Source: an uncultured virus (IMG/VR IMGVR_UViG_3300037245_003898) (taxonomy: Duplodnaviria > Heunggongvirae > Uroviricota > Caudoviricetes). From it: a stretch of 64,000 nucleotides of DNA. The translations under genes and the position numbers were made by a program. This document shows positions 3,153 through 51,080 of the stretch, piece by piece (position 1 is the first letter of the stretch; the number at the start of each line of letters is the position of its first letter). Under the pieces are notes generated by a model. That model ran no database searches. It saw nothing but the letters and a program-made list of their open reading frames with translations, and was not told the DNA's origin. The stretch lies in the IMG/VR virus record IMGVR_UViG_3300037245_003898; one strand, given 5' to 3'.

Positions 3153-3203
3153 GCGCTATTATACTATTGTGCTACTATTTCCCACAACCTCCTGTGACAA
3201 TTG

Positions 3204-8042: not shown

Positions 8043-8051
8043 AGTCCTGTT

Positions 8052-9616: not shown

Positions 9617-9617
9617 T

Positions 9618-9854
9618 TCATTTCCTTTCGACAGCCTCACACAAATAAGAGACCGAATCTATCTTCTCTATTTGGATATTCAGATCATTGCCACGGGGAA
9701 TCCGCCAGGCCCGCTGTTCAAAGCTAAGGATCAATTCGAACATATCAATGCTGGATAACAAACCGGATGAATGAAGTTTATCGCCCAAAGTAACTGACCC
9801 CTTACCTTTCTCTCGTAAAAAATCGTTAATGGCGTCTAAGATTTCCTGCTGCAT
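9618..9854 (-). CDS. acyl carrier protein
   Basis: 78 aa from MQQEIL; SGLLSSIDMFELI phosphopantetheine-type motif; directly downstream of an adenylation enzyme. Confidence 0.65.
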   Translation of the reverse strand: MQQEILDAINDFLREKGKGSVTLGDKLHSSGLLSSIDMFELILSFEQRAWRIPRGNDLNIQIEKIDSVSYLCEAVERK

Positions 9855-12040
9855 AATCGTTCCTTTGTCTTGCTTCTGCTTATTTTCCCGCTGGAGGTCT
9901 TGGATAGAAAACCCGGAGGCACAATGTCTACGATTGCAGATAAACCAAATACCTCTCGGATGCGCAAGCTGATGGCATTCTCCAGACCTGATTGCTTCGA
10001 CTCGGCACACACATGGCATTCGTGAGTCCCAGACTGTTCCGAAAGGACTCCGAAGCATGCTACTCGACCGGCGATCACGCCCTCCATCTTCGAAATCTCA
10101 TGCTCAATGATTTCAGGATAAACATTCACCCCGTATGAGACAAAAGAATCTTTAGTTCTTCCAATTATATAGAGTTCTTGATCTCTCATAAACCCAATAT
10201 CACCCGTATCGTAATATCCATAAAAATCAGACCTGGCGTTAGTATGGGGTTCGTAAGAACTGCGCATCATCACCCGACCTTCGGAATCGTTAGTCACATC
10301 TTCCCCGTCCTTTTCGATTATAATCGAGACACCAGGTATGACTCGTCCACAGCTAACATACGATACGCCACCAAATTCCGCTAACCGTATTCCGGGTTCA
10401 TTTTTCGTCAGTGGGTGTAACGGCTCGGTATACCCAGGACCAACTTTAGTTCCTGGTGGATAAACTTTTTTGATTGGCTTAGGCCCTTGACCCGACTGAG
10501 ATACCGCAAAAACGTTTTCAGCCAAAGCGTAACACACCGACACACATTCGGGATTCAGATTGTTACCTTTGAATCTCTCCTGGAACTGCACGATATCATG
10601 ATGAAAAGTTGGCTCTGAACAACTGATAACGTGAGTGAGAGAAGACAAATCAACATCATCAAGTTTTCCATTCTTGGTGATATAGCTAAAGGCGAAACTG
10701 GGCATCCATATGTGTGTAGCTCGATGTTTGTGGGCCATATTTAATATCTCGACGGGAGAAGACAGCCAAACAAATGGATCAATGATGTGGAAACTTGCCC
10801 CCTTAAGTAATGGAAGCAAGAAAGAGGATACCAAGCCCATGTCGTGATACAGCGGCAACCAGGACACCACTATAGAGTCCGAGTTGAATTCTATAGTTTT
10901 GGCATATTCATCACAATGAGAAATAAGCTGCTTATGAGTCACTTCAACGACTTTTGAGATTCCCGTCGTGCCTGATGACATCTGAAGAAATGCCAAATCA
11001 TCGGGTTTGACTTTAGGCTCAGGCAAAACGTCTCCCAGGTCAATCTTCGAGAAGCATTTGAAAAATTGTCCATGTTCATTTTTGTGCTCTTCCTCGCAGA
11101 AACAAATAGCAGGAGTGACTCGTTCTAGAATACTCTGCATTCTAACTTCAAAATCATCTTTGTGGACTTTGTAACTCGGTCTCTGTATAATCAAAGGTAT
11201 TCTCTTATACAGAATGCAACCTACGAACATATAGAACAACTCATCACAAGACTTCTTAGACAGCAGTACGACATCACCCTCTTTAGTAAGACTAGCGATA
11301 GCACTGCCAAATAGCCTGGCCTTATCGTAGAAGGTGGGGTTAGATTTCTTGATGACTTGGTTGATGGTCAAACCCATGCGACTAACATGCCTACCCAAGA
11401 ACCCAACGATATAATCGACACCAGATGCCGCATAATGAAGACGATCTTCACCTGCATTTTCCTCCACCCAGTTGAAATCCATAGGCATATGCAAAAAGTC
11501 TACGCCAAGCTTAGAATAGGCATCGTTCATTCTCAATATGTCATGATGATGTCTGATTCCCAAGTGGTGAAGCCTGTCCATTCCGTTGTCATGCTTCAAA
11601 GAATGCATGCCGATAAAAATACAGTTAGTGCTTTTGGACTTTACTACATCCATGGTCTCTTGTTCGTATTTTCTGTCGATGTACAAAAAGCTCTGTGGAG
11701 ACGTTGATGTTGGTGGGATATCAGGAGGAGTCGCAACCAGAGCCGTGTCTACTGGTTCACAAAGAGCGTCTGGATTAAACCTATGACCTGTAAGGTATTG
11801 AAGTATTTCAGGAGTCCAGCGACACACTCCCTCATGCCATCCAGCCTGGAGTATTGTCAGATCAAATTTATCCTGCGATTCCAGATATTCTGCCAAAACA
11901 TGGAGTGAAAACAACCAGTGGTCATAAAAAGCCCGAAGAGTTTTTACATCGTGTCCTGGACGGACCTGATTGAATCTGACTACTATATCATCAGCCATGG
12001 GCCAAACTGTTCTGGAATCTCCAGCTATTAGAATTCTCAT
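9836..12040 (-). CDS. SGNH-like domain fused to fatty acyl-AMP ligase (adenylation) domain
   Basis: N-terminal IAGDS ... DRLHY (GDS/DxxH); FLQMSSGTTG, SWLPLYHDMGL, CYALAEN, DTGDIG, KTSSGK. Confidence 0.85.
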   Translation of the reverse strand: MRILIAGDSRTVWPMADDIVVRFNQVRPGHDVKTLRAFYDHWLFSLHVLAEYLESQDKFDLTILQAGWHEGVCRWTPEILQYLTGHRFNPDALCEPVDTALVATPPDIPPTSTSPQSFLYIDRKYEQETMDVVKSKSTNCIFIGMHSLKHDNGMDRLHHLGIRHHHDILRMNDAYSKLGVDFLHMPMDFNWVEENAGEDRLHYAASGVDYIVGFLGRHVSRMGLTINQVIKKSNPTFYDKARLFGSAIASLTKEGDVVLLSKKSCDELFYMFVGCILYKRIPLIIQRPSYKVHKDDFEVRMQSILERVTPAICFCEEEHKNEHGQFFKCFSKIDLGDVLPEPKVKPDDLAFLQMSSGTTGISKVVEVTHKQLISHCDEYAKTIEFNSDSIVVSWLPLYHDMGLVSSFLLPLLKGASFHIIDPFVWLSSPVEILNMAHKHRATHIWMPSFAFSYITKNGKLDDVDLSSLTHVISCSEPTFHHDIVQFQERFKGNNLNPECVSVCYALAENVFAVSQSGQGPKPIKKVYPPGTKVGPGYTEPLHPLTKNEPGIRLAEFGGVSYVSCGRVIPGVSIIIEKDGEDVTNDSEGRVMMRSSYEPHTNARSDFYGYYDTGDIGFMRDQELYIIGRTKDSFVSYGVNVYPEIIEHEISKMEGVIAGRVACFGVLSEQSGTHECHVCAESKQSGLENAISLRIREVFGLSAIVDIVPPGFLSKTSSGKISRSKTKERLCSRKS

Positions 12041-12852
12041 TAGCTTTCCTTAAACTGGCGTCTACTCCATCTATCAGGAGCGAGTTTCCAGTTATCAAAA
12101 TCTATATTAGTTCTGGCTCTAGGGGCAGGGTATATGCTGGACAACAAAGCCATATCATCTGCGTGAGTATTTTCAATAGGCAGGTGATCCTGCGAAGACC
12201 ACTCTTGAGTGAGATCCATAAATCTACCGCCCATTACAACCTCAGCCCCGTCATTCTGCAACCGAACAGCCAAGTCATTAGATCCAACCCCTATGTGCGC
12301 AAAACGACAATCCCACCCACCAATCTCTTTGAGATAATCGTTCCTAATCAGAGCATTCATAACAACCTTATAGTGAGCATTCCCGCACATGGACAAAGCG
12401 GGGTTCTCTCCAAAAACCATTTTCATATCTGTCGAAGCTCTCTTCATCTTATCAACTGCTCTCTTTAGCGACTCAGGAATCCCCTGTCCAAACATTCTTT
12501 GTTCTGCTGTGGCTCCTTCAGTAAACGTGAATGACACCAGTCCTTTTCTGTGCTTTGGTATGGATGCAAACGCCGCATCTACTGCCAGACCTGGGCTAAA
12601 AATGCCATCATCGGTGGCCCAAACCACGTATTCTCCTCGACTATGCAACAGACCTAACTGGTAACAACGGCTGGGGCAGCCGAAATCTTTTACAAACACA
12701 ACGTTCTCTTTTTCTGCTAATCCTGGAGGTGGAGCATATGGCCCCACGAAGACTACTTCGTAGTCCGTTAATGTTGTAGTGTTAGGAATGGATTCATACA
12801 ACTCAACCCAATTTTGATTTCGAAACCCGGCGAGAAATATAGACAGTTTCAT
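12040..12852 (-). CDS. GT2-like glycosyltransferase, paralog family member 1
   Basis: MKLSIFLAGFR, WATDDG, GGWDCRF, DLAVRLQNDG, DFDNWK. Confidence 0.75.
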   Translation of the reverse strand: MKLSIFLAGFRNQNWVELYESIPNTTTLTDYEVVFVGPYAPPPGLAEKENVVFVKDFGCPSRCYQLGLLHSRGEYVVWATDDGIFSPGLAVDAAFASIPKHRKGLVSFTFTEGATAEQRMFGQGIPESLKRAVDKMKRASTDMKMVFGENPALSMCGNAHYKVVMNALIRNDYLKEIGGWDCRFAHIGVGSNDLAVRLQNDGAEVVMGGRFMDLTQEWSSQDHLPIENTHADDMALLSSIYPAPRARTNIDFDNWKLAPDRWSRRQFKES

Positions 12853-13676
12853 AATTCTAACCCTTCTACAATTGAATTTATAACTCCAACATTATCCAAT
12901 TCATCTAAAATGTCTTCTATAAACATCTTCTCATACTGCATGTACGCAGCATCGTAATAAACCGGCATCTCTTTATCCGTAAAATCAAAGAGACACTCGA
13001 CAAGCTCTGTCATCGGCAGGATAATGGATGAACATATGTTTGTCTCTCGGTCACGATTTCCGTTCAGGAAGCTCACCAAATAATCGCATATGTCTCTCAC
13101 ATGCAAAAAATTCCTTACCTGAGTCCCATCTCCCCATACATCCAGAGTGTCCGAAGTATTTATTTTGTGAAGTAAATCAGGGATAACGTGGGATTCACCA
13201 TACGAGGTAAACTTTGATAACTGCGATGCTCCAAAGATGTTAGGTGGTCTCACTATATACAAATCCGTTGCATTCAGCATGAAATACTGCTCTCCCTCCA
13301 ACTTTGATCTGGCGTAAGGAGTATCAGGAGACCTATCATCACTAATAGATTTGCAGCCTTCAAACACATTCAGGGTTGATACGAACAATATAGTCATTGC
13401 ATCGCAAGACTTTAAAACGTTCTCATTAATCTTGGCGTTATACGATACTACATCCTGTTTTTGATTGAAGAGCAGTCCTCCAGCCGCACTGGCTAAATGA
13501 AAGCAGAAACCTGCATCTACTTCCACAGGCCCCGTCGTTAAGTCATGAATCTTATCCACTCCCTGAATACCCGAAGGCACCAGATCTATATTTGTGACAT
13601 CATAGCCCCGAGACAAAAGTGTCTGAACTAACTCCTGTCCTACAAAACCAGAACCGCCCGTGACTAAAACTTTCAT
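12849..13676 (-). CDS. NAD-dependent epimerase/dehydratase (SDR)
   Basis: VTGGSGFVG, YARSK, WGDGTQVRNFLHV. Confidence 0.9.
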   Translation of the reverse strand: MKVLVTGGSGFVGQELVQTLLSRGYDVTNIDLVPSGIQGVDKIHDLTTGPVEVDAGFCFHLASAAGGLLFNQKQDVVSYNAKINENVLKSCDAMTILFVSTLNVFEGCKSISDDRSPDTPYARSKLEGEQYFMLNATDLYIVRPPNIFGASQLSKFTSYGESHVIPDLLHKINTSDTLDVWGDGTQVRNFLHVRDICDYLVSFLNGNRDRETNICSSIILPMTELVECLFDFTDKEMPVYYDAAYMQYEKMFIEDILDELDNVGVINSIVEGLEL

Positions 13677-14452
13677 TTTCTCCGTCCCCATTCCGCTGGC
13701 GATTGCTTCCAATTGTCGAAATCAATTTTCACTCTGTTAACGCACTCAGGGTTGTCATAAATTGAGCGATATAGTGGCATATCATTCTGCATAAACGCAT
13801 CGTGAATTGCCCCGTGTCCCGCCTGACTCGTATCAAATCCCAAAGAAAACACTTTGGTATCGACTAGGATAAACTTTGCTCCATCCCTCTGTGCCCGAAT
13901 GGCCCAATCGGTAAGAGCCAACGCAGGTGCTTCAAACCGACAATCCCAACCGCCAAGCTCTTTGAAATATTCTCTATCCATGTAAGCGAAGTTAGCTATA
14001 GACCAATCTGTTGGGACATAGTTTGAAGCAGTTACCGCGCTCCCATGCACTTTGTAATAGTTGTCTGCTAATTGAATATTCCAGTTAGCTCGGCCTCCCT
14101 TACTAGCTCCTTCGCCCTCAGTATACTTCCCAAGAACTACGGTTTTCCTGTCCTGGTCCCGAATGACATTCCAAAGCGCATTTAGAGCATTGGGCTCCAT
14201 CATCGAATCATCCGTAAGAGGCATCACTCGTCTGCCAGTCGCTACAGAAGCTGCGATTTGAAACCCTCTTATAGGAGAACCTTCATCATGAACGAACTTG
14301 ATACAAGTATTATGTTCTAATTCTGGAGGCAAAGGCTTAGGGCCTACGCAGATAATCTCTACAGGCATCGACGCCGAGTTAAAAATCAAATCAAAGCACG
14401 CAGCCCAATTTTCCGTTCGTATTCCAGAACATAGAAATGAAATATCCATCAT
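13673..14452 (-). CDS. GT2-like glycosyltransferase, paralog family member 2
   Basis: PLTDDS, GGWDCRF, DWAIRAQRDG, DFDNWK. Confidence 0.7.
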   Translation of the reverse strand: MMDISFLCSGIRTENWAACFDLIFNSASMPVEIICVGPKPLPPELEHNTCIKFVHDEGSPIRGFQIAASVATGRRVMPLTDDSMMEPNALNALWNVIRDQDRKTVVLGKYTEGEGASKGGRANWNIQLADNYYKVHGSAVTASNYVPTDWSIANFAYMDREYFKELGGWDCRFEAPALALTDWAIRAQRDGAKFILVDTKVFSLGFDTSQAGHGAIHDAFMQNDMPLYRSIYDNPECVNRVKIDFDNWKQSPAEWGRRK

Positions 14453-14982
14453 AGCTCCTTGATTGCTTCCACATTCAAACTCATTAAAAGACCTTTATTC
14501 TTTTCCATGTGAGGCCAATAAGACTGACTGTAATCATCTACGTCGGAATGTTCAGTGTTCCTCCATTCGTATTCCGCCACACTGCGAAACCCAGCGTTTT
14601 CCAAATCACTTTCTAGGGATTGAAAATCCCAACAGTAGTGGTGGAAATTAGTTTCGTAATCTTGACCTCCGTACAAAAACCCTATGAGCTTATCCAATGA
14701 TACTCCGTCCTGATACAGATGCACAACTTTTGCGAAGTCAGGAACGGCTATTCTTAGAATAGCCCCTGGCTTCAGTATCTCGCACCATCTCTCTAGCACT
14801 TTGTTTCTTTCGTGACGACTAACGTGCTCCAAAACGTGGGACACATAAATAAGATCAACAGAGCATGGCTTAAACGAAGACAGAGTTCTCACATCATCTA
14901 TAATCGCCCCATCGAATGGACGGGCATCTACATTCACAAAACCATGCAGCATCTTGGCCCCACACCCTAAATGTAACTTCAT
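14449..14982 (-). CDS. SAM-dependent methyltransferase (type 11-like)
   Basis: KLHLGCG, SHVLEH, LKPGAILRIAVPD. Confidence 0.85.
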   Translation of the reverse strand: MKLHLGCGAKMLHGFVNVDARPFDGAIIDDVRTLSSFKPCSVDLIYVSHVLEHVSRHERNKVLERWCEILKPGAILRIAVPDFAKVVHLYQDGVSLDKLIGFLYGGQDYETNFHHYCWDFQSLESDLENAGFRSVAEYEWRNTEHSDVDDYSQSYWPHMEKNKGLLMSLNVEAIKEL

Positions 14983-15782
14983 TTTGGAATCCCGTTAGGC
15001 CACCGCCGAGACCACACGGCGGGACAATCTTTCCAGTTATCAAATTCTATTTTGGTTCTATTTAACCCTCCATTAGGTTGGTAAATCTCGATAAACAGCG
15101 GCTGGTCATGAGCGCTATGGCTTTCTTGCACCGGAGCATGATCTTTCGTGCCCGCTGAGTTATCCCAACTCGTCCAATCGCAGTTCATTACCTCCAGCGG
15201 AGATAGATGCAGGACACCTCCGTCTCGCTGAATTCTATAAGACAAGTCATGAGCGGCAAAAGCCAGATGCTCGAATCTGCAATCCCAACCCCCCAGCTCT
15301 CTGAAATACTCAGCCGACATCAGGGGCTGCATAAAGAACTTGAAATCCAAGGGCATTTTAACTTTGATAGCCTTGAAAAATCCCTCGTTGCCTTTGACCG
15401 TCCAATACTCTAGGGGTTTAGGCTCACCCGCCATATCTATGCCCTCACGATATCTCAGGATAATGGCATCCTTTTTGGCAGACATATCGAGCAACTCAAT
15501 ACTCTTGTCCAGTGATTCAGGAAAAGCATATCCATCATCTGCGGGAACTGCTATGAGCCGTCCTTCACATAGTAACGCTCCTTCCATGGCAGCCCTTACA
15601 GATGATGCATAGGTCTTTACGTGTTTCACGTTATCTTTGTCTTTGAGGGACTCTGGTAAATCGTAGGGACTGGCGAAAACCACCTCGAAAGTATACTTTG
15701 TGCAAGCTGATACAAACGAGTCGTATAATCGGTCCCAATAGCTCGGGCGTATCGCAGGTAAACATATAGACAAGTCAATCAT
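14979..15782 (-). CDS. GT2-like glycosyltransferase, paralog family member 3
   Basis: DLSICLPAIR, VPADDG, GGWDCRF, EFDNWK. Confidence 0.7.
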   Translation of the reverse strand: MIDLSICLPAIRPSYWDRLYDSFVSACTKYTFEVVFASPYDLPESLKDKDNVKHVKTYASSVRAAMEGALLCEGRLIAVPADDGYAFPESLDKSIELLDMSAKKDAIILRYREGIDMAGEPKPLEYWTVKGNEGFFKAIKVKMPLDFKFFMQPLMSAEYFRELGGWDCRFEHLAFAAHDLSYRIQRDGGVLHLSPLEVMNCDWTSWDNSAGTKDHAPVQESHSAHDQPLFIEIYQPNGGLNRTKIEFDNWKDCPAVWSRRWPNGIPK

Positions 15783-16708
15783 TACGTTCTCACTTCTGGA
15801 TAGTTATCTATGAACCACTTAACCGTTTGCCCGATGCCGTCATCATGGGCAGTAAACTTGAGATTAGGAACTAAAGACATCAGTCGGGAAATATCACTTG
15901 GCCGACGTAACTGCCCATTGGGTTTTGATGTGTCAAAGATTATCTCTCCATCGAAATCCATATGTCTACAGACCATGCTGGCGAGATCCTTGATAGATAT
16001 CTCTGAGTTGCTGGAGATGATCACCTTATCATGCTCTTTCATTTTAAGAACAGCCATCGTCAAGCGGGCGAGATCATTAGAATAAATGAATTCCCGCAAA
16101 GGAGATCCATCCCCCCAAATAGTCAGCGGCTCGCCAGACTTCTTGGCCAAATAACACTTATGAATCAAAGATGCTATCACATGGCCGTTGGACAGACTAA
16201 AATTGTCGTTAGGGCCATACAAATTAGTAGGTATGATTGAGCAATAGTTTACTCCATACTGACGACAATAAGCTTTGATCTGAATATCGGCCATTCGCTT
16301 TGCATACCCATAAGCAAAATTATCATCAAACGGCTTGCCGCATTGCTGCAAATCTTCTCGCAGTACCTCAACATCGTCAGGAAAAGTGCAGACCGAGGAA
16401 TAGCAAACAAAATTCTTGACTCCTGACTTGTAAGCCCAATGAATCATATGGCTGTTCATCAATATGTTATCGTAGAACAGTTCTGCTGGCTTGGACCTGT
16501 TAAGGCCGATGCCTCCCACTTTTGCAGCAGCGTGTATAACATAATCAGCATGAGCAAAGCGATACAAAGATCGAACGTGGTCTACATTTGTCAAATCCCC
16601 ATCTTCTCGGTTAGCAAAATAGAAATCATGTTCAAGAAATTCTGACTGTATCGTCTTGAACGCTAACCCTAACAGACCATCTGAGCCAGTAACCAGTATC
16701 TTAGACAT
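15782..16708 (-). CDS. fcl: GDP-L-fucose synthase-like epimerase/reductase (Fcl/ColC family)
   Basis: HAAAKVGGI, YGYAKR, PTNLYGPNDNF, WGDGSPLREF, DTSKPNG. Confidence 0.85.
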   Translation of the reverse strand: MSKILVTGSDGLLGLAFKTIQSEFLEHDFYFANREDGDLTNVDHVRSLYRFAHADYVIHAAAKVGGIGLNRSKPAELFYDNILMNSHMIHWAYKSGVKNFVCYSSVCTFPDDVEVLREDLQQCGKPFDDNFAYGYAKRMADIQIKAYCRQYGVNYCSIIPTNLYGPNDNFSLSNGHVIASLIHKCYLAKKSGEPLTIWGDGSPLREFIYSNDLARLTMAVLKMKEHDKVIISSNSEISIKDLASMVCRHMDFDGEIIFDTSKPNGQLRRPSDISRLMSLVPNLKFTAHDDGIGQTVKWFIDNYPEVRT

Positions 16709-17138
16709 TGAAAATCTCCGCATCAACAACCATTTTCTTCAGCAATGAATGCCAGTCAGTATCTATCTCACTTACCCATCTATAATCGGTAGAAGTGTCA
16801 TCTAAGGTTACTTCGTCACTACTAACCGACACAACAAACAGGGTAGTTACGAAATGTTTTCCTTCTGCTTCAGGGGCTTCGTATGATTGGACCATACGGA
16901 CTGCCTCTGCGTCAAGCCCTACCTCGTCTCGGGCCTTGCGCTTCACGGCGTCATGCCAGCTTTCACCTATATGGACACGACCTCCAACAATCCACCACAA
17001 ACATCCCCAGGTTTCTGATTCTCCTCTCTGAACAATAAGAAGTTTATCGTCATGCACTATTGCGAGGTCAACACAACAAATTGGTATCAACTGTAATATC
17101 TGCTCATATTGTTCTTTAGGAATGAAAGTCATATTCAA
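16701..17138 (-). CDS. NUDIX hydrolase, GDP-mannose mannosyl hydrolase-like
   Basis: PICCVDL...GGRVHIGESWHDAVKRKARDEVGL variant Nudix box. Confidence 0.75.
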   Translation of the reverse strand: MNMTFIPKEQYEQILQLIPICCVDLAIVHDDKLLIVQRGESETWGCLWWIVGGRVHIGESWHDAVKRKARDEVGLDAEAVRMVQSYEAPEAEGKHFVTTLFVVSVSSDEVTLDDTSTDYRWVSEIDTDWHSLLKKMVVDAEIFNV

Positions 17139-19117
17139 TTCACAAACTTATAGAGATAAGCTCCTTTTTTATTGCCGTACCACACGACTTCGCGATACCA
17201 CTGATTCCATGAATTCCATGTTTTGGAGCTGCGGTCTATCGTGTAATTATACTCTCCATGTTCTAGTTGTATCACCTCTCCAATAAGGTTGGCCCTGTAT
17301 ACATCCCAAATATTGCAATGGAGTTCAACATCTATGTCAGTATCTACAAACGGAATTTTGATAAGCTTTTCGTTAAAATCAAATGCATCTCGTAGTATTT
17401 GTTCAAAATCTTTATGACCTTGAGACTTGAGCATGCTCGTCAAGATGCTAAAACACTCGTCATAAAATGCCTTCAGTAAATCGTTTTTCACTAATTTGAT
17501 AAAAAAGAACTCATCAGCAGGCCAGAAGATGTTTAGCCATTCCTCTGATTCACAATATTCCGCACCGCCTGCTTGAATGTCTCTGGCTTTGTCAATGAAA
17601 AAGTTAGTCGCCTGTGAAAGGACAGGCGACGATGTTTGCATCATAGTTTCCACAGCGTCTTTGTACCTAACGCCATAAACTACGTTTAACAGAATCAACG
17701 GTATCTGCAAAAGCTTGTCAAAGTGCAACAAAGAGATCATGAAAGCAAAAGAACGACATTTTACCCAGTCCTCTGAAGACATAGTGTTTGTCTCAATAAC
17801 CAGTTGTTGGGTCTCATATATGTTGTCCACCCATTCTCCCAGACTTCCGTGGGTGTTAATCTGCTTTGTTTCTACCATCTTCATGCCGTATCGTTTCTGA
17901 TACTCCTTATCTCCCATTTCAGCATTAGGTAGAATCGACAGATTGCTGAATTGGATACGATTGTGCTGTCCCATTTCTATCAGAGTGGATGTTCCTTCTT
18001 TGAAGGTGTCATACGTTTCTTCAGGCAATCCCAGAATGATATCCGAGAACGTCTCCACTCCTTCCGCAGTGAATCGTCGTTGGAGTTCGTAATATGTTTC
18101 CAGTTTAATATTGTCCCTTTTGATGGCTTTAAGAGTGTCTTCGTTTAACGTCTGGAACGCCAAAAGGACTCCCTTGCTGAGCCCGTTTTGGGTCATTACC
18201 TTCTGAATGTCATACGATGCATCGGTAGAATTTTTGGTATTCTGAACCGACAAAGCCTCCGGATACCCATAGAGTTTTTTGTTTTCTACAAACTTGTTTG
18301 CTATAGCCAAATCTCTCTTTTTGTACATGCCAAAGTTGGCATCACAGCAATAGACAAACTCGACTTTATTATTGCTAAACCAGTCTACTTCTTTGTAGAG
18401 TCTGTCAAGGTTGTAGTCAGCCATGCGCTTCTTGGCCCCCACGCCCCAATCACAGTAAGTACACTTAAAAGGGCATCCTCGGTTGGTCTCCCATAGCCCT
18501 ATCCAATTTTCATCAGGATTGGCTGCAATCAGATCATCGAAAAACCCTGTTAAAAATGGAGACGGAACATCATTGAGGTCTTCGATACGTGGTGCTAGAC
18601 GGTTTTGACTGAAACAGCCGTCACGAAGATATGCCAAAGATGGGACATTGGTCCAGTTTTTCGCATGATAATTATTCAAGAATGATGCAAAAGCAACTTC
18701 ACCCTCGCCAGGAATCGCAAAATCTACAAACGACAATTCGCTCAAAAACTCTTCGAGAACTTTTTCGTCATCAGGAACGTGACATCCCCCAAATAGAATC
18801 ACAACTCCGGGGTTGACCTTTTTAATTTCCTCGGCTATCAAACAGGATATTTTGAAGTTCCATACATAAACGCTAAACGCTACCAGGTCTGAGCCTTCAA
18901 GCTTCTTTAGGGCAGCATCAACAGAGAGCCGTTTGTAAATCGGAGTCAAAAAATGGAAGTAGTCAATATTTGGAACATGTTTTCGGGCATAGGCTTCTAA
19001 AAATCCCACAGATAAGGGCAAATAGCTTTGCTCTGAAAAGCTGTTATTAACCTGAACGAGACCAACGTTGGTCTTCGATGTGGGTCTTTCGACCCCAGGG
19101 TTCAAATAATAACTCAT
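17135..19117 (-). CDS. B12-binding radical SAM enzyme (class B methyltransferase-like)
   Basis: YLPLSVG, FSVYVWN, GGCH, GEGE; ETNRGCPFKCTYCDWG (CxxxCxxC). Confidence 0.9.
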   Translation of the reverse strand: MSYYLNPGVERPTSKTNVGLVQVNNSFSEQSYLPLSVGFLEAYARKHVPNIDYFHFLTPIYKRLSVDAALKKLEGSDLVAFSVYVWNFKISCLIAEEIKKVNPGVVILFGGCHVPDDEKVLEEFLSELSFVDFAIPGEGEVAFASFLNNYHAKNWTNVPSLAYLRDGCFSQNRLAPRIEDLNDVPSPFLTGFFDDLIAANPDENWIGLWETNRGCPFKCTYCDWGVGAKKRMADYNLDRLYKEVDWFSNNKVEFVYCCDANFGMYKKRDLAIANKFVENKKLYGYPEALSVQNTKNSTDASYDIQKVMTQNGLSKGVLLAFQTLNEDTLKAIKRDNIKLETYYELQRRFTAEGVETFSDIILGLPEETYDTFKEGTSTLIEMGQHNRIQFSNLSILPNAEMGDKEYQKRYGMKMVETKQINTHGSLGEWVDNIYETQQLVIETNTMSSEDWVKCRSFAFMISLLHFDKLLQIPLILLNVVYGVRYKDAVETMMQTSSPVLSQATNFFIDKARDIQAGGAEYCESEEWLNIFWPADEFFFIKLVKNDLLKAFYDECFSILTSMLKSQGHKDFEQILRDAFDFNEKLIKIPFVDTDIDVELHCNIWDVYRANLIGEVIQLEHGEYNYTIDRSSKTWNSWNQWYREVVWYGNKKGAYLYKFVN

Positions 19118-21465: not shown

Positions 21466-21472
21466 ATGTTAC

Positions 21473-22228
21473 TCACTTAAACCTACGACGCCACCTTGCT
21501 GGCGCATTGTGCCAATTATCAGGATCTATTACGCCACGGGAAGCACTATCCTTATGGTGATACATCCTGTTGAATAAACGTTTATCACTCTTGTGAGCCT
21601 GCTTGACAGGCATGTGGCCAGCGTCCTTCTTGTCTAAAGATGTATCCATGAGATTTTCCCCAATGACTACATCGGCCCCATCATTCTGTAATCTAATGGA
21701 CAAATCTACACAACTCAGCCCAACATGCTCCAGAGTACAGTCCCATCCTCCTAGTTTCATCAAATGATCACGACGCATTAAAGCCAGCATTATCACTATG
21801 TAGTTATTTGGAACATATGGAGCTTGAGCCAGCAGCCTATGATGCCTCATTCGCCACCAGCCCAAATTTCTCATCGCCTCTCGCCCACCCTCTACATAAC
21901 GTAGCATAACAACCCCTTTGTTAGCGGGGATGGATTCAAATGCTTTATCAATTGCAAGGGTGGGGCTGAAAGTTCCGTCATCTGCGGCCCAAACAACATA
22001 CTCACCTTGACTATTCAAAAGACCCAACTGATAGCAACGAGTAGGACAACCAAAATCTTGAATAAGACGAACATTGCCTTTTCGACGTAATGGAGCAGGC
22101 AGTTTATGAGGACTAACGATAACAAGCTCAAACTCTGTTCTAGGCAAGGTAGTAGCGTTCGATATAGAACGGTAGAGCGGCAGCCAATTTTGAGGTCTAA
22201 TTCCAGCCAAGAATATCGACAATTTCAT
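21473..22228 (-). CDS. GT2-like glycosyltransferase, paralog family member 6
   Basis: MKLSIFLAGIR, WAADDG, GGWDC; ATGA overlap with upstream gene. Confidence 0.75.
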   Translation of the reverse strand: MKLSIFLAGIRPQNWLPLYRSISNATTLPRTEFELVIVSPHKLPAPLRRKGNVRLIQDFGCPTRCYQLGLLNSQGEYVVWAADDGTFSPTLAIDKAFESIPANKGVVMLRYVEGGREAMRNLGWWRMRHHRLLAQAPYVPNNYIVIMLALMRRDHLMKLGGWDCTLEHVGLSCVDLSIRLQNDGADVVIGENLMDTSLDKKDAGHMPVKQAHKSDKRLFNRMYHHKDSASRGVIDPDNWHNAPARWRRRFK

Positions 22229-22983
22229 CCTTTGAATCTCCTCGTCCATACTGCTGGTGCTTGTTTCCAGTTATCAAAATCCACTTTAGAACGAGTTTTC
22301 TGAGAATAAATTTTGTTGAAGTATGGCATATCGTGTTCTACGAACGCATCTTCAATAGGTTTATGATTTCCGCCGACTTCCAGAACAAGGTCCATGATTC
22401 TCTCTCCCATTACAACTTCGGCACCATCATCCTGCAACCTCACAGACAAATCGGGCAGAGCCAAACCTCCATATTCAAAATTGCAATCCAACCCGCCAAT
22501 CTCCATCAGATAGTCACGACGCATCACAAAGGCCATGACAAGCAAATAGTGATCTGAAATAATCGCCTTTTCTTTCATGAATGGATGACCACCCGTCTGC
22601 CAGGACATTTTGTTGTGCTTGATCTTTCCGAGGCTACGACTCTCAGTATATGTCAAGGTGACAATTTTCTTTCTAGAATCGAGTACATCAAGTGCTTTAT
22701 CGACGGCAAGTGTTGGACTAAAAACTCCATCGTCTGCAATGCCCGTCAAAATATACTCTCCCTTGCTATGCAATATTCCCAACTGATAGCAACGTGTGGG
22801 ATTGCCCCAGTCTTTAATCAAACGCACATTAGGTTCATTTTGCAACTCCGGAGGCAAATCATAAGGGCCAACGATAACCATCTCATAGTCATCCTTGGGC
22901 AACGTAGTAATATTCGAGATAGACTGGTAAAGGGTTAACCATTTCTGGTGTCTTATTCCTGCGAAGGATATCGATAATTTCAT
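22225..22983 (-). CDS. GT2-like glycosyltransferase, paralog family member 7
   Basis: MKLSISFAGIR, GIADDG, GGLDC, DFDNWK; ATGA overlap. Confidence 0.75.
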   Translation of the reverse strand: MKLSISFAGIRHQKWLTLYQSISNITTLPKDDYEMVIVGPYDLPPELQNEPNVRLIKDWGNPTRCYQLGILHSKGEYILTGIADDGVFSPTLAVDKALDVLDSRKKIVTLTYTESRSLGKIKHNKMSWQTGGHPFMKEKAIISDHYLLVMAFVMRRDYLMEIGGLDCNFEYGGLALPDLSVRLQDDGAEVVMGERIMDLVLEVGGNHKPIEDAFVEHDMPYFNKIYSQKTRSKVDFDNWKQAPAVWTRRFKG

Positions 22984-23768
22984 TCGTATTTTCTCCTGGG
23001 CCAAACATCGTGAGTTTTTTGCCAGTTATCAACGTTTATGTTAACACCCATTGATTCATGTTTGTACACATTTTGAAATAAAGGCCAATCATTTTGGAAG
23101 TGAGCATCTTGAATAGGCGTATGATCTATGCCCCACGAATCAATCCCTGTTCTTACATGAGTCAGATCCAAACATCTCTCCCCCAAAACGACATTAGCGC
23201 CACAGTCCTGCCATCTTATAGAAGAATCCACGCAGGCCATACCTGGCTGTTCAAATCTGCAATCAAACCCACCTAACTCCATTAAATACTCGCGTCTCAT
23301 CAAACCTATCATAACAAGGATATATCCTTTGGCCCGTCTAAGTGATTTCATTTTCTGGATGAATCTATATTTTCCTAAACGATAGTGTTCGTCGGAGTTC
23401 TGTATCAGATTGTTTTCATTGTTATCCCCTTCATAGTATTTGAAAGCAACAACTCCGTTATACTGAGGCAAATCGGCAAAAGCTTTATCAATGGCCATTG
23501 TAGGACTAAAAATTCCGTCATCGGCAATCCAGACCACATACTCACCTTGACTATTCAAAAGACCCAACTGGTAGCAACGAGTCGGACAGCCCCAGTCTTT
23601 CACCACACGAATATTAGGTTCGTTCTGCAACTCTAGAGGCAAGTCATAGGGACCAACAATAACCATCTCGTACTCATCCTTAGACATTGCAGTGACGTTA
23701 GGAATGGAGTTGTACAGAGCCGCCCAATTTTGGGATCTTATTCCAGAAAAGAATATAGATAGCTTCAT
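22980..23768 (-). CDS. GT2-like glycosyltransferase, paralog family member 8
   Basis: MKLSIFFSGIR, WIADDG, GGFDCRF; ATGA overlap. Confidence 0.75.
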   Translation of the reverse strand: MKLSIFFSGIRSQNWAALYNSIPNVTAMSKDEYEMVIVGPYDLPLELQNEPNIRVVKDWGCPTRCYQLGLLNSQGEYVVWIADDGIFSPTMAIDKAFADLPQYNGVVAFKYYEGDNNENNLIQNSDEHYRLGKYRFIQKMKSLRRAKGYILVMIGLMRREYLMELGGFDCRFEQPGMACVDSSIRWQDCGANVVLGERCLDLTHVRTGIDSWGIDHTPIQDAHFQNDWPLFQNVYKHESMGVNINVDNWQKTHDVWPRRKYE

Positions 23769-24553
23769 GCTTTACCTCCTGGGAAACGTCTGCGCCACAC
23801 TTCAGGAGCTTGTTTCCAGTTATCAAAGTCTATTTTAGACCTGTTGGAGCAAAACTTATGACTGTACGTGCGCATATACAGTGCCTTGTCATTCTTATGA
23901 AAGGCTTGAACTACAGGACCATGATCACCCGAATTACCTATCAGGTGACTAATGTCCATCATTTTCTCGCCCAGGACAACTTCGGCACCATCATTCTGTA
24001 ACCTTACCGCCAAATCTGGTAAAGCTAAGCCTGGTTGTTCAAATCTGCAATCAAACCCACCAACCTCCATCAAATAATCACGACGTGCTAAAGCTATCAT
24101 GGTGAGAAGATAGTGGTCATAAACATACGGCAAACTTTTGTGCAATTTATGACTTCCAAACCGCCAATAAGAATCGTTTTGCGTGGCCAGAGACGCCGAG
24201 GTGACATTGCCCTCATGGTATTTGAATGATACTACCCCTTTATGGTGTTTGGGGATAATATCGAACCCTTTATCGATAGCGTTATTCATGCACACTCCGT
24301 CATCGGCAACGCCGGTCAATATGTACTCACCTTGGCTATGAAGAATGGCCAACTGGTAACAACGAGTCGGGCAGCCCCAGTCTTTCACCACACGAATATT
24401 AGGTTCGTTCTGCAACTCTAGAGGCAAGTCATAGGGACCAACAATAACCATCTCGTACTCATCCTTAGACATTGCAGTGGCGTCAGGAATGGAGTTGTAT
24501 AGAGCCGCCCAATTTGGAACTCTTATACCAGCAAGTGCTATAGATAATTTCAT
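23765..24553 (-). CDS. GT2-like glycosyltransferase, paralog family member 9
   Basis: MKLSIALAGIR, GVADDG, GGFDCRF, DFDNWK; ATGA overlap with gmd. Confidence 0.75.
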   Translation of the reverse strand: MKLSIALAGIRVPNWAALYNSIPDATAMSKDEYEMVIVGPYDLPLELQNEPNIRVVKDWGCPTRCYQLAILHSQGEYILTGVADDGVCMNNAIDKGFDIIPKHHKGVVSFKYHEGNVTSASLATQNDSYWRFGSHKLHKSLPYVYDHYLLTMIALARRDYLMEVGGFDCRFEQPGLALPDLAVRLQNDGAEVVLGEKMMDISHLIGNSGDHGPVVQAFHKNDKALYMRTYSHKFCSNRSKIDFDNWKQAPEVWRRRFPGGKA

Positions 24554-25581
24554 TTGCTTCTCTTCTGTTTTTCTGCTAATTCCATATCTGCATCTACCAT
24601 ACAATCCACAAGATCTTCAAAACCCACCGATGGCTTCCATTCTAAAGTTGATTTTATTTTTGAGGGGTTACCCAACAAGCTGTCCAATTCGATTTCCCGG
24701 AAATATCTCTTATCGATCCTGACGTGTTTATCAACATCAAGACCCAGCTTGTTAAATACTGCATCCAGGAATTCTTGGACAGTTTTAGTGATACCTGTTG
24801 CTACAACAAAATCATCGGGCACATCATGTTGCAGCATCATGTACATCGCCTGGACATAATCAGGTGCATACCCCCAATCACGAGACGCCTTCAGGTTGCC
24901 CAACACTAGCTCCTTTTGTAAACCACAGTGTATCCTGGTCGCTGCTCGTGTAATTTTTCGGGTAACATAGGTTGCCCCTCTACGCGGGCTTTCATGATTG
25001 AACAGCATTCCATTGACCGCAAAAATACCCTTCTTGCGATAATTGCATGTTTGCCAGAATGCTGTGCTCTTTGATACAGCGTAGGGAGAGCATGGAAAAA
25101 ACGAACTAGACTCGTCCAAAAGAGTTCCAGCAGGATGATTACCAAACATTTCACTAGATGATGCTTGGTAAAATTTCACTGTCTTCTTTTTGTTCAAACT
25201 TTCGATGGCTGTCAACAATCTGAGATTGCCCACCGCGTTAACATTCATGGTTAGTTCTGGTTGGTCGAAACTAACTCGCACATGAGCTTGTGCTCCCAGA
25301 TTGTACACTTCGTCCGGTTCTATATCGTAAATCAGTCTGGCTATGGAGCTTCCATCCGTCAAGTCTCCGTAGATCATAAAAAAATTGTCGGCAAAATGTC
25401 GAGCCCAATAAGGCAAATTTACATCTGAAGATGCCTCTGTCTGCAAGTGATCAACACGCTCCGTGTTAAATACAGATGATTTGCGAACCAAACCGAAGAC
25501 TCGATATCCCTTCCCAAGTAGAAGTTCGGCCAAATACGAGCCATCCTGTCCTGTTACGCCGGTTATTAACGCAGTTTTCAC
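24550..25581 (-). CDS. gmd: GDP-mannose 4,6-dehydratase
   Basis: ALITGVTGQDGSYLAE, YQASSSEMFG, SPYAVSK, LFNHESPRRG, RDWG; GTG start after GGAGGA. Confidence 0.95.
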   Translation of the reverse strand: MKTALITGVTGQDGSYLAELLLGKGYRVFGLVRKSSVFNTERVDHLQTEASSDVNLPYWARHFADNFFMIYGDLTDGSSIARLIYDIEPDEVYNLGAQAHVRVSFDQPELTMNVNAVGNLRLLTAIESLNKKKTVKFYQASSSEMFGNHPAGTLLDESSSFFPCSPYAVSKSTAFWQTCNYRKKGIFAVNGMLFNHESPRRGATYVTRKITRAATRIHCGLQKELVLGNLKASRDWGYAPDYVQAMYMMLQHDVPDDFVVATGITKTVQEFLDAVFNKLGLDVDKHVRIDKRYFREIELDSLLGNPSKIKSTLEWKPSVGFEDLVDCMVDADMELAEKQKRSK

Positions 25582-25623
25582 GAGTTGTCCTCCCATTAGT
25601 AACTAATTTGCCAGACCACATAA

Positions 25624-26601
25624 TTATCCCTTGCTGAATACGCTGTAACGATTGAACGCAATATCCCAATTATTTTTTAGCCACTCACAAGTATCTTTGA
25701 TGCCTTCGGCTAGACTAACATTAGGTTTCCATCCTAAATCGGTAGCCCTTGCAATGTCCAGGATTCTCGTCGAATCACCCAGCGGCTTGGATGTGTCCCA
25801 AACTACCTCAGGATTCATGCCTGTAGCCTCAAGTATGGTTGATACCAAATCTTTTATTGAGACTCCAATACCACTGCCTATGTTGACTGGCTCAGATGGA
25901 TTTGCTTTCATCATATGTAAAATACCTTCGGCTGCGTCTTGGGCGTGAAGAAAATCCCGTTTGGCAGATCCATCACCCCACACCATCAAAGTGTCTCCCC
26001 CAGATAGAGTTCGATAAATCAAAGATGGGACGACCATTGCTCCGGAATCAGCATCAAAAGTGTCGTGTCTCCCATATATATTAGCAGGTCGGACTATAAC
26101 AATGTTTTCCCATCCGTGTTCTATACGGTAAGCTTCGGCTTGTAACTCTCCCATGCGTTTTGCCCATCCTGAGCACCTATCATTTGGAGAGGGAGCTGTA
26201 AGCCAAACATCATCTTCTCGTAAGAGAGGAGCAGGCTGATACACTCCTATGGAGCTTGTATAGAGATACTTCTCAACGCCATTTTTCCAAGCTGCTTCCA
26301 TCATATTCAAATTGAATTGCATCAGAGGAACCATAAAGCTGGCAGGTCGTTCAACAGCAACTCTAGGAGAGCCTTTGACTCCAGCGAGGTGAAAAACAGA
26401 ATCCATGCCCTTGCAGGCTTTATCACATGCTTCTTTCTCTGTCAGATCCGCTTTTGTATACGTCACACCTTCAGGAACCACAAAGTCGTCATCAAGGGCC
26501 ACAACATGAACATCTGATCCTTCTGCAACCAACAAATCCACCAAGTATCGCCCGATCATACCGCTGCCACCAGTGACTAAAACTTTTTTCCCATTAAACA
26601 T
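25624..26601 (-). CDS. NAD-dependent epimerase/reductase (Fcl/GME-like)
   Basis: VTGGSGMIG, RPANIYG, WGDGSAKRDF; catalytic motif reads SGWAK. Confidence 0.85.
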   Translation of the reverse strand: MFNGKKVLVTGGSGMIGRYLVDLLVAEGSDVHVVALDDDFVVPEGVTYTKADLTEKEACDKACKGMDSVFHLAGVKGSPRVAVERPASFMVPLMQFNLNMMEAAWKNGVEKYLYTSSIGVYQPAPLLREDDVWLTAPSPNDRCSGWAKRMGELQAEAYRIEHGWENIVIVRPANIYGRHDTFDADSGAMVVPSLIYRTLSGGDTLMVWGDGSAKRDFLHAQDAAEGILHMMKANPSEPVNIGSGIGVSIKDLVSTILEATGMNPEVVWDTSKPLGDSTRILDIARATDLGWKPNVSLAEGIKDTCEWLKNNWDIAFNRYSVFSKG

Positions 26602-27565
26602 GGCCTAACTCCTTATACCAAGAAACTGTTTTGGCTATACCTTCCTCTAAAGACACTTTGCTCTTCCATTTCAATATGTCATAAGCCTTAGATACATTTA
26701 GAATTCGAACAGGAATCATATCAGGTTTGTCAGAGTGATATTCCAGACGTGGAGAAAGACCATACTCTTTCAAGACAACTCGGACTAATTCATTGATAGA
26801 AGATCCAATTCCTGTTCCTATGTTAATGGGGTCAGCTTCAGCATGCGATTCCAATGCAAGTAAAAGACCTCCAATCAAATCACTAACGTAGATGAAATCA
26901 CGCTCTTGGTTCCCGTTACCCCAAATTGGAAACGGGTCAAGTCCTTCTTCGGCTTTCAGGATCGTAGCAGGTACAACATGGCATTTCGATGGATTAAAAG
27001 ATGCACGAGGGCCGTAAATGGCAGAAGCCCTAATGAGAGCAAACTGGGTTTTCGTGACCGCGTGAAAATGTTGGCATACTTTTTCACAATAACGCTTCAT
27101 CCAACCAAATCCATAATAGCAGGCAGGCGGGTCACCTGTAAATGCTTCATGCTCTGTTAAGGGGTTTCCTTTCGTATCTGGGTACATGGTGGAACTTCCA
27201 ATAAATGCAAAACGATCAACTTTCGCTATGCAAGCAGATTCAATCAGGTTGATATATGGCACCAAATTTTTACGTATCAACTGCCAAGAATTTTCCGTTT
27301 GACCTTTTGCTCCGCAAATAAATGCCGCGCAATTGACCACCATATCCATATCCTGGACCACTCGTTGGGCATCCTCATAACACGCAAGATCGCATGGTAC
27401 AATCTCAAGACGAGGATGAGAAATGTCTAGTGTACGATGATTGTAATCAGGATGGTTGAAAACGGTGGCTCTTACAAAAGCTCCCTGGTCGAGCAACTGC
27501 GTCACAGCCTCATGGCCAGTGAGACCTGCTCCTCCTGTTACAAGCACATTCTTTTTGTCAAACAT
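26594..27565 (-). CDS. NAD-dependent epimerase/reductase (Fcl/GME-like)
   Basis: VTGGAGLTG, GSSTMYP, FGWMKR, WGNGNQERDF. Confidence 0.85.
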   Translation of the reverse strand: MFDKKNVLVTGGAGLTGHEAVTQLLDQGAFVRATVFNHPDYNHRTLDISHPRLEIVPCDLACYEDAQRVVQDMDMVVNCAAFICGAKGQTENSWQLIRKNLVPYINLIESACIAKVDRFAFIGSSTMYPDTKGNPLTEHEAFTGDPPACYYGFGWMKRYCEKVCQHFHAVTKTQFALIRASAIYGPRASFNPSKCHVVPATILKAEEGLDPFPIWGNGNQERDFIYVSDLIGGLLLALESHAEADPINIGTGIGSSINELVRVVLKEYGLSPRLEYHSDKPDMIPVRILNVSKAYDILKWKSKVSLEEGIAKTVSWYKELGHV

Positions 27566-28113
27566 TATATCTCTCCATACAGATCGGCTTTTTCTACAAG
27601 TACAGTCGAAACTCCGTCTTCTCGTTCTAAAGCATGCGTATATGCAGGGAGGACTTCATCCGCTTTGTTTAGAACCATAAGTTCAACAGTTTTCAACAGG
27701 CTAGAGAATGCTTCCGAGTAGTCTGAGCAATGCTGTATTCCAGGGTGTAATGGGTCTGTGCTTCCCACGCACACCCGAATTATAACTTTCGGCTTCACTC
27801 GCCCATTGCTCATGCTCGGGAACTTGTCCAGATGATTAGCTAGCTGGTTACTGGCTAACAACAGAAAATCGAATCTAGGATACACTGTCACTGGGATAAA
27901 CCCATTTAGAGCAAGCCCTATCGACATCCCCATTTGGAGATCTTCTGCCACGGGCATCTCTATACGACGGCTAGAGTCAATGGATTCCAAGTTCCTATGT
28001 AGAGCATTCCCTGGATAGCCAACACATTGCCCGAGAAATATCACATTCTCGTTTTCAGCCAGCTTTTTCATCGCCAGGGTAATCTGGTCAAAGTATGTTA
28101 GAACGTCACCCAT
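27565..28113 (-). CDS. TPP enzyme pyrimidine-binding subunit (E1-beta/transketolase-like, short)
   Basis: EMPVAEDLQMGMSIGLALNG, YPRFDFLLLASNQL, GIQH. Confidence 0.85.
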   Translation of the reverse strand: MGDVLTYFDQITLAMKKLAENENVIFLGQCVGYPGNALHRNLESIDSSRRIEMPVAEDLQMGMSIGLALNGFIPVTVYPRFDFLLLASNQLANHLDKFPSMSNGRVKPKVIIRVCVGSTDPLHPGIQHCSDYSEAFSSLLKTVELMVLNKADEVLPAYTHALEREDGVSTVLVEKADLYGEI

Positions 28114-28688
28114 TTTCCTGCTCCTACATGTGGATATGAACTTTCGAATTCGTATTCAGTTATGTTTAGTTTCATGCCATCTTCTCCCCAGACTTTTCTG
28201 GTTGGGGTCTGAACAGAAATATGGTTATCCTCGACGACTATATTTAGTGGCAACGAATGCCCACTGGCATACTGCCTGACTTCTTGCAGAATGCCAGTGC
28301 GGGCTGTCATGTCTCCAACAAACAGCCAGACTTGATCGGGCTGTTGTTTTAGTTTGATGCTCAGAGCCGCCCCGAGCGCTATAGGGGCTATGCCTGCTAC
28401 AATAGCAGAAGCATAGAACCTGTGCTCGGGATTATTCACTGTGATACTGCGGCCCTCCATTATCTCTTGTCGCAACCATCCTATGTCGATCCCATGTAGC
28501 AAAGCATGGTAATGACTCCGCCAAGTGGAGAACACCCAGTCTGTGGTCTTGATGTTCTTGAAGATCTCGATTAGGCTGTCTTCATTTCCATCGGACAAAT
28601 GAACCGGTGCATTGATCTTACCCTCACAAAAAGTATCACACATTTCAGTCTCGAAGGCAATCAACTCTTCTTTCGTAAACACTGTCAC
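28098..28688 (-). CDS. TPP enzyme diphosphate-binding subunit (E1-alpha-like, short)
   Basis: HLSDGNE, STWRSHYHAL, GDMT...NIVVEDN TPP motif, YPHVG. Confidence 0.85.
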   Translation of the reverse strand: MTVFTKEELIAFETEMCDTFCEGKINAPVHLSDGNEDSLIEIFKNIKTTDWVFSTWRSHYHALLHGIDIGWLRQEIMEGRSITVNNPEHRFYASAIVAGIAPIALGAALSIKLKQQPDQVWLFVGDMTARTGILQEVRQYASGHSLPLNIVVEDNHISVQTPTRKVWGEDGMKLNITEYEFESSYPHVGAGKWVTF

Positions 28689-28693
28689 ACTCC

Positions 28694-29527
28694 TTATTCA
28701 GTATATCCAGGCCCGACTTTGGTACCTGGCGGGTAAGTCCTATGTTTTAACACCATAGGATGTGGGGATGCAGATGAGATGGCCGCTCGAAACATAGGAA
28801 AGTATTTCTTGATTTGATGACGTAAAATGGATAACAAAGTAGCCCTGTCAACGTTGATACGAGGTCTGCCTATCTTCTCGTGGGTTCTGTGCTTAAACAC
28901 TATAGAATCAACCAAAGGAGTGCGCAGACCTCTGCCGACCTTATTTGAAACGTAGCATAAGAACCTATCTGAATATACGTGAGGAGATACTATTCCTAAA
29001 ACATCAAACCACTCTCGGCTGTAGGCTGGTGATACACAATTTCCTAGCTTGGGATACATTCCTGGAACATGACATACATATATATTGTCCGGATAAACAG
29101 TACGACTTTCCCTAAAAGCTTTTACCCAGTCGCCACCCGTAATCTCGTTATCCTCATTAAAGAGCCATAACACATCTCCATTTGCCTGCCGCGATAGGTC
29201 GTTTTGATTAACGAACAAACTCCAGTATGCTTGCATCCGCTCATACAGTAGTATTTTATAAGAAAATGGACATCCGGTCAGGATTCTAACATACTCAGAG
29301 AATGTTGCATCATCCGAGTCCAACTTTACAAGAATTTCGACCTCGCCAGGTGAACTACAAGTATTCACCAGCGATTGTATAGCGTTGGCAAAAACAGACG
29401 GACGACCGCGTGAGTGCATGATCACACTAACAATTACATAGCTTGATTGATAGCTCTGACACGATGAGTCATAAACTACCCGAGCCAAGGTGCGATCTAT
29501 TGGAATTGGTGGTGGTTTTTTCCTCAT
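28694..29527 (-). CDS. GT-A/GT2-like glycosyltransferase
   Basis: VSVIMHSRGRP, EILVKLDSDD, GDVLWLFNED; C-terminal YPPGTKVGPGYTE. Confidence 0.6.
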   Translation of the reverse strand: MRKKPPPIPIDRTLARVVYDSSCQSYQSSYVIVSVIMHSRGRPSVFANAIQSLVNTCSSPGEVEILVKLDSDDATFSEYVRILTGCPFSYKILLYERMQAYWSLFVNQNDLSRQANGDVLWLFNEDNEITGGDWVKAFRESRTVYPDNIYVCHVPGMYPKLGNCVSPAYSREWFDVLGIVSPHVYSDRFLCYVSNKVGRGLRTPLVDSIVFKHRTHEKIGRPRINVDRATLLSILRHQIKKYFPMFRAAISSASPHPMVLKHRTYPPGTKVGPGYTE

Positions 29528-32781: not shown

Positions 32782-32794
32782 ATCCAATTCCTCA

Positions 32795-44319: not shown

Positions 44320-44355
44320 TGAAGTTTCCTTGCAGTGTTAATATAAGCCCCAAAG

Positions 44356-44757: not shown

Positions 44758-44802
44758 ATCAATTTAATTCCTCACCGTTAAGTCATTTGCTGAATGTTCG
44801 GG

Positions 44803-51073: not shown

Positions 51074-51080
51074 CAATTAG

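Follow-up and report, generated by a model that had tools for sequence, protein, structure and literature searches.

In a 64,000-nucleotide stretch of DNA from an uncultured virus (IMG/VR record IMGVR_UViG_3300037245_003898; the whole stretch is hereafter called the window), two unrelated enzymes, a fatty acyl-AMP ligase (FAAL)-like adenylation enzyme and an orphan GT-A glycosyltransferase (GT), carry the same 13-residue peptide, which we call the tag. The tag is under selection at the protein level, lies in disordered segments, is portable between positions and enzyme families, and is restricted to transferase-type enzymes of one lineage. We consider it probable (roughly 60%) that the tag is a docking motif recruiting acceptor-modifying enzymes to one hub, which would most plausibly be a glycosylated virion protein or its scaffold. 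This is in line with the general features of short linear motifs, with 3–15 conserved residues in a disordered setting that recur in unrelated proteins regardless of position, here in three families and both in a loop and at C-termini. The two copies in the window are:

10424..10462, minus strand: tag copy 1 (13 codons), residues 527-539 of the FAAL encoded by open reading frame (ORF) 9836-12040 (734 aa).
28697..28735, minus strand: tag copy 2 (13 codons), at the extreme C-terminus of the orphan GT-A enzyme, ORF 28694-29551.

The reverse complements of 10424-10462 and 28697-28735 translate into the same 13-mer and differ at nine nucleotides, 9/9 of them synonymous third-position changes, in exact agreement with the codons and the peptide identity given in a preliminary description of this DNA, which left unstated that both copies are on the minus strand. 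Under neutrality, the probability that all nine changes would be synonymous is ~1.9e-5. Given that only ~1.4e-8 pairs sharing a 13-mer would be expected among the 20,813 residues of the window, and that the longest word shared by shuffled window proteins was 6–8 residues in 200 of 200 shuffles, chance is excluded for this pair; the remaining shared words of at least nine residues in the window are all between paralogs. No third copy was found in six frames of the window (next best 6/13), nor with a position-specific scoring matrix. The preliminary description had named an assembly chimera at either site and absence of the motif from related genomes as grounds for rejecting its reading. No chimera was seen in the contigs of run X1, possibly the window's own source, which cross each tag site without joints or indels, and the tag is conserved in related genomes: independent assemblies back both arrangements, with the same tag-bearing FAAL loop insertion in P0134 and the same GT tail in locus L005. 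The tag has a 10-residue core, G-x-K-[TV]-G-P-G-Y-T-E, usually with Y-P-P and basic residues ahead of it; this core, the occurrence of tandem copies, and the shifts of the tag in position and enzyme family between genomes were all unreported in the preliminary description.

Eight full DNA copies of the tag had a proportion of synonymous differences (pS) of 0.63 and of nonsynonymous differences (pN) of 0.027, which supports the earlier proposal that selection maintains the peptide and that the copies do not go back to a recent duplication of the DNA. The stop codons following the tag also differ between copies. It is highly improbable, and already largely refuted, that the tag is an assembly artefact or the in-frame translation of a DNA or RNA element such as a hairpin, promoter or mobile palindrome. 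While both window copies can form a hairpin (~-11 kcal/mol), and the Tyr11 codon is TAT in 11/11 DNA copies compared to a window share of 0.64 (the copies share ancestry), the wobble bases of the hairpin are complementary in only 3/8 and 4/8 copies, with no covariation, and folding was no better than that of synonymous recodings (fractions 0.30–0.97). Furthermore, 11/11 DNA copies are in coding frame, no promoter, terminator, flanking repeat or Rfam match was detected at either window tag site, and the tag occurs in several assemblies. Mobile elements of the RPE and REP type have a conserved nucleotide palindrome, with copies also outside coding frames; for the tag, we found neither a conserved palindrome nor out-of-frame copies.

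The carrier of the first copy and its surroundings comprise the following features:

9836..12040, minus strand: FAAL-like adenylation enzyme with an N-terminal SGNH-like domain, 734 aa (Pfam AMP-binding, E 3.9e-31).
10394..10489, minus strand: 32-residue loop insertion (~residues 518-549) with the tag between Pro/Lys-rich spacers, delimited by homolog alignment and predicted local distance difference test (pLDDT) values.
9618..9854, minus strand: 78-aa ORF of its own that overlaps the 3' end of the FAAL ORF; in P0002 and P0007, homologous sequence forms one protein with the FAAL.

The FAAL fold was backed by Foldseek (E 1.7e-37) and VIA (Z 44.5, root-mean-square deviation (rmsd) 2.7, 471 aligned residues), the ANL fold of this carrier being closest to FAAL structures, and an NCBIfam fatty acyl-AMP ligase model matched at E 2.6e-56, yet below the family cut-off. 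Of the enzyme labels proposed earlier, the FAAL and GT-A folds were supported, while the SGNH domain had no Pfam match, and ESM Atlas feature matches of 0.89–0.90 to GDSL/SGNH clusters are only a lead. The expectation that the FAAL tag lies in an insertion was borne out: the 32 residues were missing in 45/45 aligned homologs (the best 45 of 2381), and in the AlphaFold model (mean pLDDT 90.2) the sole stretch below 50 was 519-548, which is the insertion. P0002 has no loop insertion and carries the same 13-mer at its C-terminus, after a fused domain resembling an acyl carrier protein (ACP) and an Ala-Pro linker; P0003, P0004, and P0007 are close FAAL homologs without the tag. The separate 78-aa ORF of the window had no Pfam or NCBIfam match, and we take it by resemblance to be an ACP. 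Given that its start overlaps the FAAL stop, the C-terminus of the FAAL would be blocked, which probably accounts for the loop position of the tag. The split between the FAAL and this ACP-like partner (9618-9854; 9836-9860), which are fused in P0002 and P0007, amounts in the window to a one-base frame offset with an ATG of its own, and P0003, P0004, and P0134 terminate at a point similar to the window FAAL; the two could be translationally coupled or connected by a programmed frameshift.

The second copy is carried by the following enzyme:

28694..29527, minus strand: orphan GT-A glycosyltransferase (the listed ORF is 28694-29551, with the likely start codon an ATG at 29527 that overlaps the upstream stop).

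This protein had a PHROG glycosyltransferase match (E 1.4e-4), and its top VIA rows were GT-A enzymes (Z 12.7, rmsd 3.1, 174 aligned residues). The model had a mean pLDDT of 67.6, with the tail below 50, and the tag is followed by TAA and then by a GGAG ribosome-binding-like site. Seven of 12 homologs have the tag at or near their end, sometimes in tandem, and an eighth tagged homolog came from the metagenome profile search; the other five of the 12, one of them apparently truncated, have no tag. In six tagged homologs, the tag was identical at 12–13 of 13 residues despite divergence of the core (118–139 of 221 identical, 53–63%) and of the linker ahead of the tag (1–3 identities of 10–15), P0130 being closer overall.

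Between these two carriers lies a third group of enzymes:

12040..24604, minus strand: stretch with nine GT2-like paralogs, all untagged in the window (weak Pfam GT2 match for one, E 0.0022).

Five relatives of these paralogs are tagged elsewhere. A metagenome pattern scan yielded five loci with the tag (L001-L005), and in L001 three GT2-like paralogs end in a shorter form of it, while one from L003 has the full form at its end; P0143 is the fifth. Given that the tagged paralogs do not form one clade (approximately unbiased test, p 1.3e-14), and that a tagged and an untagged sister enzyme are 92.7% identical, the set of tagged enzymes differs between genomes. Overall, the tag occurs in three unrelated enzyme families and three positions, namely the FAAL loop (P0001, P0134), the C-terminus of the FAAL-ACP fusion (P0002), and GT C-termini. 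Two full copies each are present in P0130 and P0143, and decayed extra copies were noted by eye, and left uncounted, in P0122, P0127, and P0154. Where untagged GT paralogs end in P-G-G-K-A, we also considered a relic of the tag but rejected this, given that these ends overlap the next start codon and encode its GGAGG-type ribosome site; no out-of-frame tag was found after them. In the same stretch, the nine paralogs, five of them in direct tandem, have a Trp-x-Arg-Arg end in common, and two paralogs share a 43-residue identical stretch, which suggests recent conversion.

A profile of 11 tag contexts was used for a census of 5.8 billion proteins of 73–2000 aa, which returned 39 matches from 4124 candidates: 16 lineage enzymes, 17 members of a small-phage family, and six periplasmic-binding proteins. 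One L001 tag was missing from these matches, so short tag forms may escape detection. Among 162 fetched proteins, 16/16 carriers of the 10-residue core were transferase-type enzymes of this lineage, of which 12 end on the tag and two carry it ~195 residues from the end. The tag pattern had no match in IMG/VR or GTDB genomes, was not found in 22 distant loci (best 7/13), and was present in 0/5 whole virus records with related clusters (one at least 90% complete); direct searches for the FAAL and the GT in IMG/VR, and for the GT in GenBank phages, also gave no match. A representative-sequence search with the tag gave two matches, both from this lineage, whereas a PDB sequence search with the tag profile gave two chance-level matches to its first half only (E 0.38 and 1.0), and an ESM Atlas search with the double tag gave no usable match. 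The six proteins with periplasmic-binding Pfam domains had a partial motif only; P0149 was examined and dismissed as chance.

The 17 small-phage matches belong to one family, P0135 (L010-L016 near 10001-10582; L013 and L015 elsewhere), whose disordered region contains repeats of K-[TV]-G-P-G-Y-[TS]-E-P-P and shows the Thr/Val alternation also seen in the tag. Many of its members end in a CHAP-like domain (weak Pfam matches). A shorter relative (L011) has one G-P-G-Y-T-E-P-P core and is encoded between terminase and portal, and Pro directly follows the internal copies of the tag as well. Such likeness could arise if the reader of the tag were a conserved host protein, or a head-assembly component common to distant phages, and the small-phage protein had converged on the K-[TV]-G-P-G-Y-[TS]-E-P core. 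We regard this as distinctly improbable, given that the 8-residue core is expected ~116–193 times by chance in that database, that in the small phages it is confined to a single gene (one match in each of 3/5 records) and has a different extension, and that, of the six loose-core matches in IMG/VR, the five that were read lie in ORFs unrelated to the glycosylation cluster.

If the tag is a docking motif, a flexible linker would display it for binding to one site on a shared hub, most likely the virion protein being glycosylated, or a scaffold or assembly site holding that protein. Docking would then raise the local concentration of the enzymes by which the growing glycan receives its sugars or acyl groups, and the soluble enzymes that make precursors would be left untagged. 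Between cluster genes, the tag would spread as a small DNA cassette, placed at the C-terminus where this is free and otherwise, as in the FAAL, in a surface loop; it would be optional for each enzyme, with extra copies appearing and decaying. Glycans on mycobacteriophage capsids and tail tubes offer a precedent for virion glycosylation in a second-hand account (PMC12619734), and by this analogy the hub is probably a virion substrate or scaffold. A function as a protease site is unlikely, given that Glu is usually the last residue of the tag.

Several observations weigh against docking on a virion hub. No binding partner of the tag was identified; the docking or localisation role put forward in the preliminary description fits the anatomy of the tag, but it is otherwise a role that we infer. 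Scans of the window proteins, in which not every ORF was set against every library, revealed no structural gene, and six related GT loci are on contigs of bacterial metagenome-assembled genomes, which leaves a phage origin unproven. The count by enzyme class across L001-L005 and the window (10/57 transferase-type, 0/40 precursor-making, and 0/5 methylase enzymes tagged) speaks for docking, but its Fisher p of 0.005 is optimistic because orthologs repeat, loci were picked for holding the tag, and classes were partly assigned by eye. In the window alone, only 2/27 transferase-type enzymes are tagged, so tagging is not something that the pathway generally requires. Across 18 counted copies, G4, K6, G8, G10, and T12 were invariant and Y11 was kept in 17, values inflated by counting only copies with at least 6/8 core residues. 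Finally, the tagged rows may form one clade in the FAAL tree (support 61), so two gains and one relocation are not distinguishable by the tree. When the body of the orphan GT (residues 20-256) was modelled together with the tag loop, the median was 0.23 compared to a mark of 0.32, without folded controls, a result that weighs neither for nor against docking.

The conserved hydroxyl residues could also mark a modification site, in which the core Thr or Tyr would be glycosylated, acylated or phosphorylated, thereby regulating or priming the enzymes or mimicking the true acceptor sequon. The constancy of T12 and Y11, the exposed and disordered setting of the tag, and a NinI-like Ser/Thr phosphatase in the window fit this possibility. 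However, no non-enzyme protein of the lineage with the motif appeared among the census matches, which makes the acceptor-sequon option of the preliminary description the weaker one, and Gly, Lys, and Pro are conserved like the hydroxyl residues, a pattern that a shaped binding surface would explain, as would a strict sequon. Altogether, modification seems unlikely to us.

We also find it improbable that the tag is a packaging signal of the type of the T4 capsid targeting sequence or of encapsulin cargo peptides, loading enzymes into a prohead or shell for assembly or for the next host. The tag has the right size and is mostly terminal, and peptides of this type are portable to foreign proteins in the systems described (PMC3012670, PMC11664910). 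However, the tag is also conserved within an internal loop, the scanned window proteins included no recognisable capsid or encapsulin protein, and inside a head the enzymes would be cut off from nucleotide sugars, ATP, and the carrier protein.

The docking motif that we favour is set in a gene cluster that takes up much of the window:

2193..39926, minus strand: co-oriented glycosylation cluster (~38 kb) with nucleotide-sugar dehydratases, epimerases, aminotransferases, a pair of thiamine pyrophosphate (TPP) enzymes, a B12 radical S-adenosylmethionine (SAM) protein, a sulfotransferase, and GT2, GT4, and GT9 enzymes.

The long ORFs of the window are packed on the minus strand. The split TPP-enzyme pair (27565-28688) and the B12 radical SAM C-methyltransferase-like protein (17135-19144) suggest branched or C-methylated sugars, judging from known pathways. 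Two orthologs of cluster enzymes are about twice as long as in the window, a dehydratase in L001 (4819-6879; 687 compared to 323 aa) and an aminotransferase in L004 (10053-12275; 741 compared to 385 aa), and possibly contain inteins or fusions. On either side of the cluster are an AMMECR1-like protein (1387-1995) and an AmmeMemoRadiSam-like radical SAM enzyme (40946-41932). Outside the cluster, the window encodes ATP- and NAD-dependent DNA ligases, which are nearly adjacent (42919-46683), a helicase, homing-type endonucleases, the NinI-like phosphatase, a transfer-messenger RNA (tmRNA) at 51078-51451 (Rfam 115.5 bits) whose tag peptide ends in Leu-Ala-Ala, and a tRNA-Tyr placed by ARAGORN within the same coordinates. 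A second sugar module (57697-61486) is untagged and includes proteins that are KdsC-, NeuB-, and NeuA-like by eye and a sialyltransferase-like PHROG match. Related clusters were present on IMG/VR contigs (11 and 13 loci), and together with the homing endonuclease, ATP-dependent ligase, tmRNA, and tRNA-Tyr, they indicate that the source of the window is likely a large phage. The window DNA was traced to a single run, labelled marine sediment metagenome, and one window protein is recorded on a contig of 122 kb. No RNA datasets containing the window DNA were listed.

Full-text literature searches for 'GPGYTE' and 'PPGTKVG' returned no paper, with most subscription journals outside their coverage. 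For short linear motifs with phage glycosyltransferases, only work on Borg repeats was found, and a jumbo-phage search returned nothing. Tentatively, a large sediment phage lineage may run a membrane-free glycan assembly line via a plug-in peptide that enzymes gain, duplicate, and lose, with the core possibly reached independently by an unrelated protein of the head-packaging region of small phages, pointing to a conserved, undescribed reader; we consider this wider proposal possible, though less likely than docking as such. If it holds, moving a cassette of 30–39 bases would rewire which sugars or acyl groups reach the virion. The tag also provides a handle on the question of how viruses with dozens of soluble glycosyltransferases direct these to their target in the absence of a Golgi or membrane carrier: its 13 residues can serve as bait, naturally tagged and untagged sisters are 93% identical, and one enzyme family includes both a loop and a tail version. 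Should the tag dock on a capsid or scaffold, it could also serve as a portable means of positioning enzymes on protein shells.

Among known systems, sliding-clamp client motifs (the beta-clamp QL[SD]LF motif and the PIP box) are short motifs on many unrelated enzymes that share one hub. The tag has no sequence match to them, and the ligases, helicase, and glycosylase of the window are untagged. The T4 capsid targeting sequence is N-terminal and is removed by the head protease, whereas all copies of the tag are C-terminal or internal, on biosynthetic enzymes, and cleavage after the terminal Glu of the tag would remove nothing. Similar to the tag, the T4 sequence, as far as its published description goes, is a phage-encoded, portable short peptide and the only conserved part among diverse proteins (PMC3012670). 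Borg tandem repeats are described as fast-evolving disordered inserts with predicted short linear motifs in proteins of a large mobile element, including glycosyltransferases, that are absent from outside homologs; however, they are nucleotide tandem repeats arising independently in that account (PMC9879509), while the tag peptide has been kept through near-saturated synonymous change across unrelated genes.

Encapsulin cargo-loading peptides, as summarised in PMC11664910, resemble the tag in being conserved terminal peptides of 10–20 residues on enzymes that dock to an HK97-fold shell, whereas the tag is also internal and has many client families, and no encapsulin was recognised among the window proteins scanned. 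The Rubisco-binding motif of the Chlamydomonas pyrenoid, [D/N]W[R/K]xx[L/I/V/A], is eukaryotic and helical in the available description, with a known hub and measured binding (PMC7673724). According to the same source, this short motif occurs on unrelated proteins, both at the very C-terminus and internally, singly or repeatedly, and is preceded by basic residues, all features also seen in the tag. There is no sequence likeness, the column frequencies of the tag do not follow the pyrenoid consensus as given there, and the tag is Gly/Pro-rich, gained and lost between close relatives, with a hub that is only proposed. Given these differences in sequence or position, the tag is assigned neither to the pyrenoid motif nor to the T4 signal; we do not assign it to the encapsulin class either. 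By analogy, the pyrenoid motif, which recruits clients to a multivalent hub in the system described (PMC7673724), would be the best functional model, and the tag appears to work most like this Rubisco-binding motif and less like the encapsulin or T4 packaging peptides.

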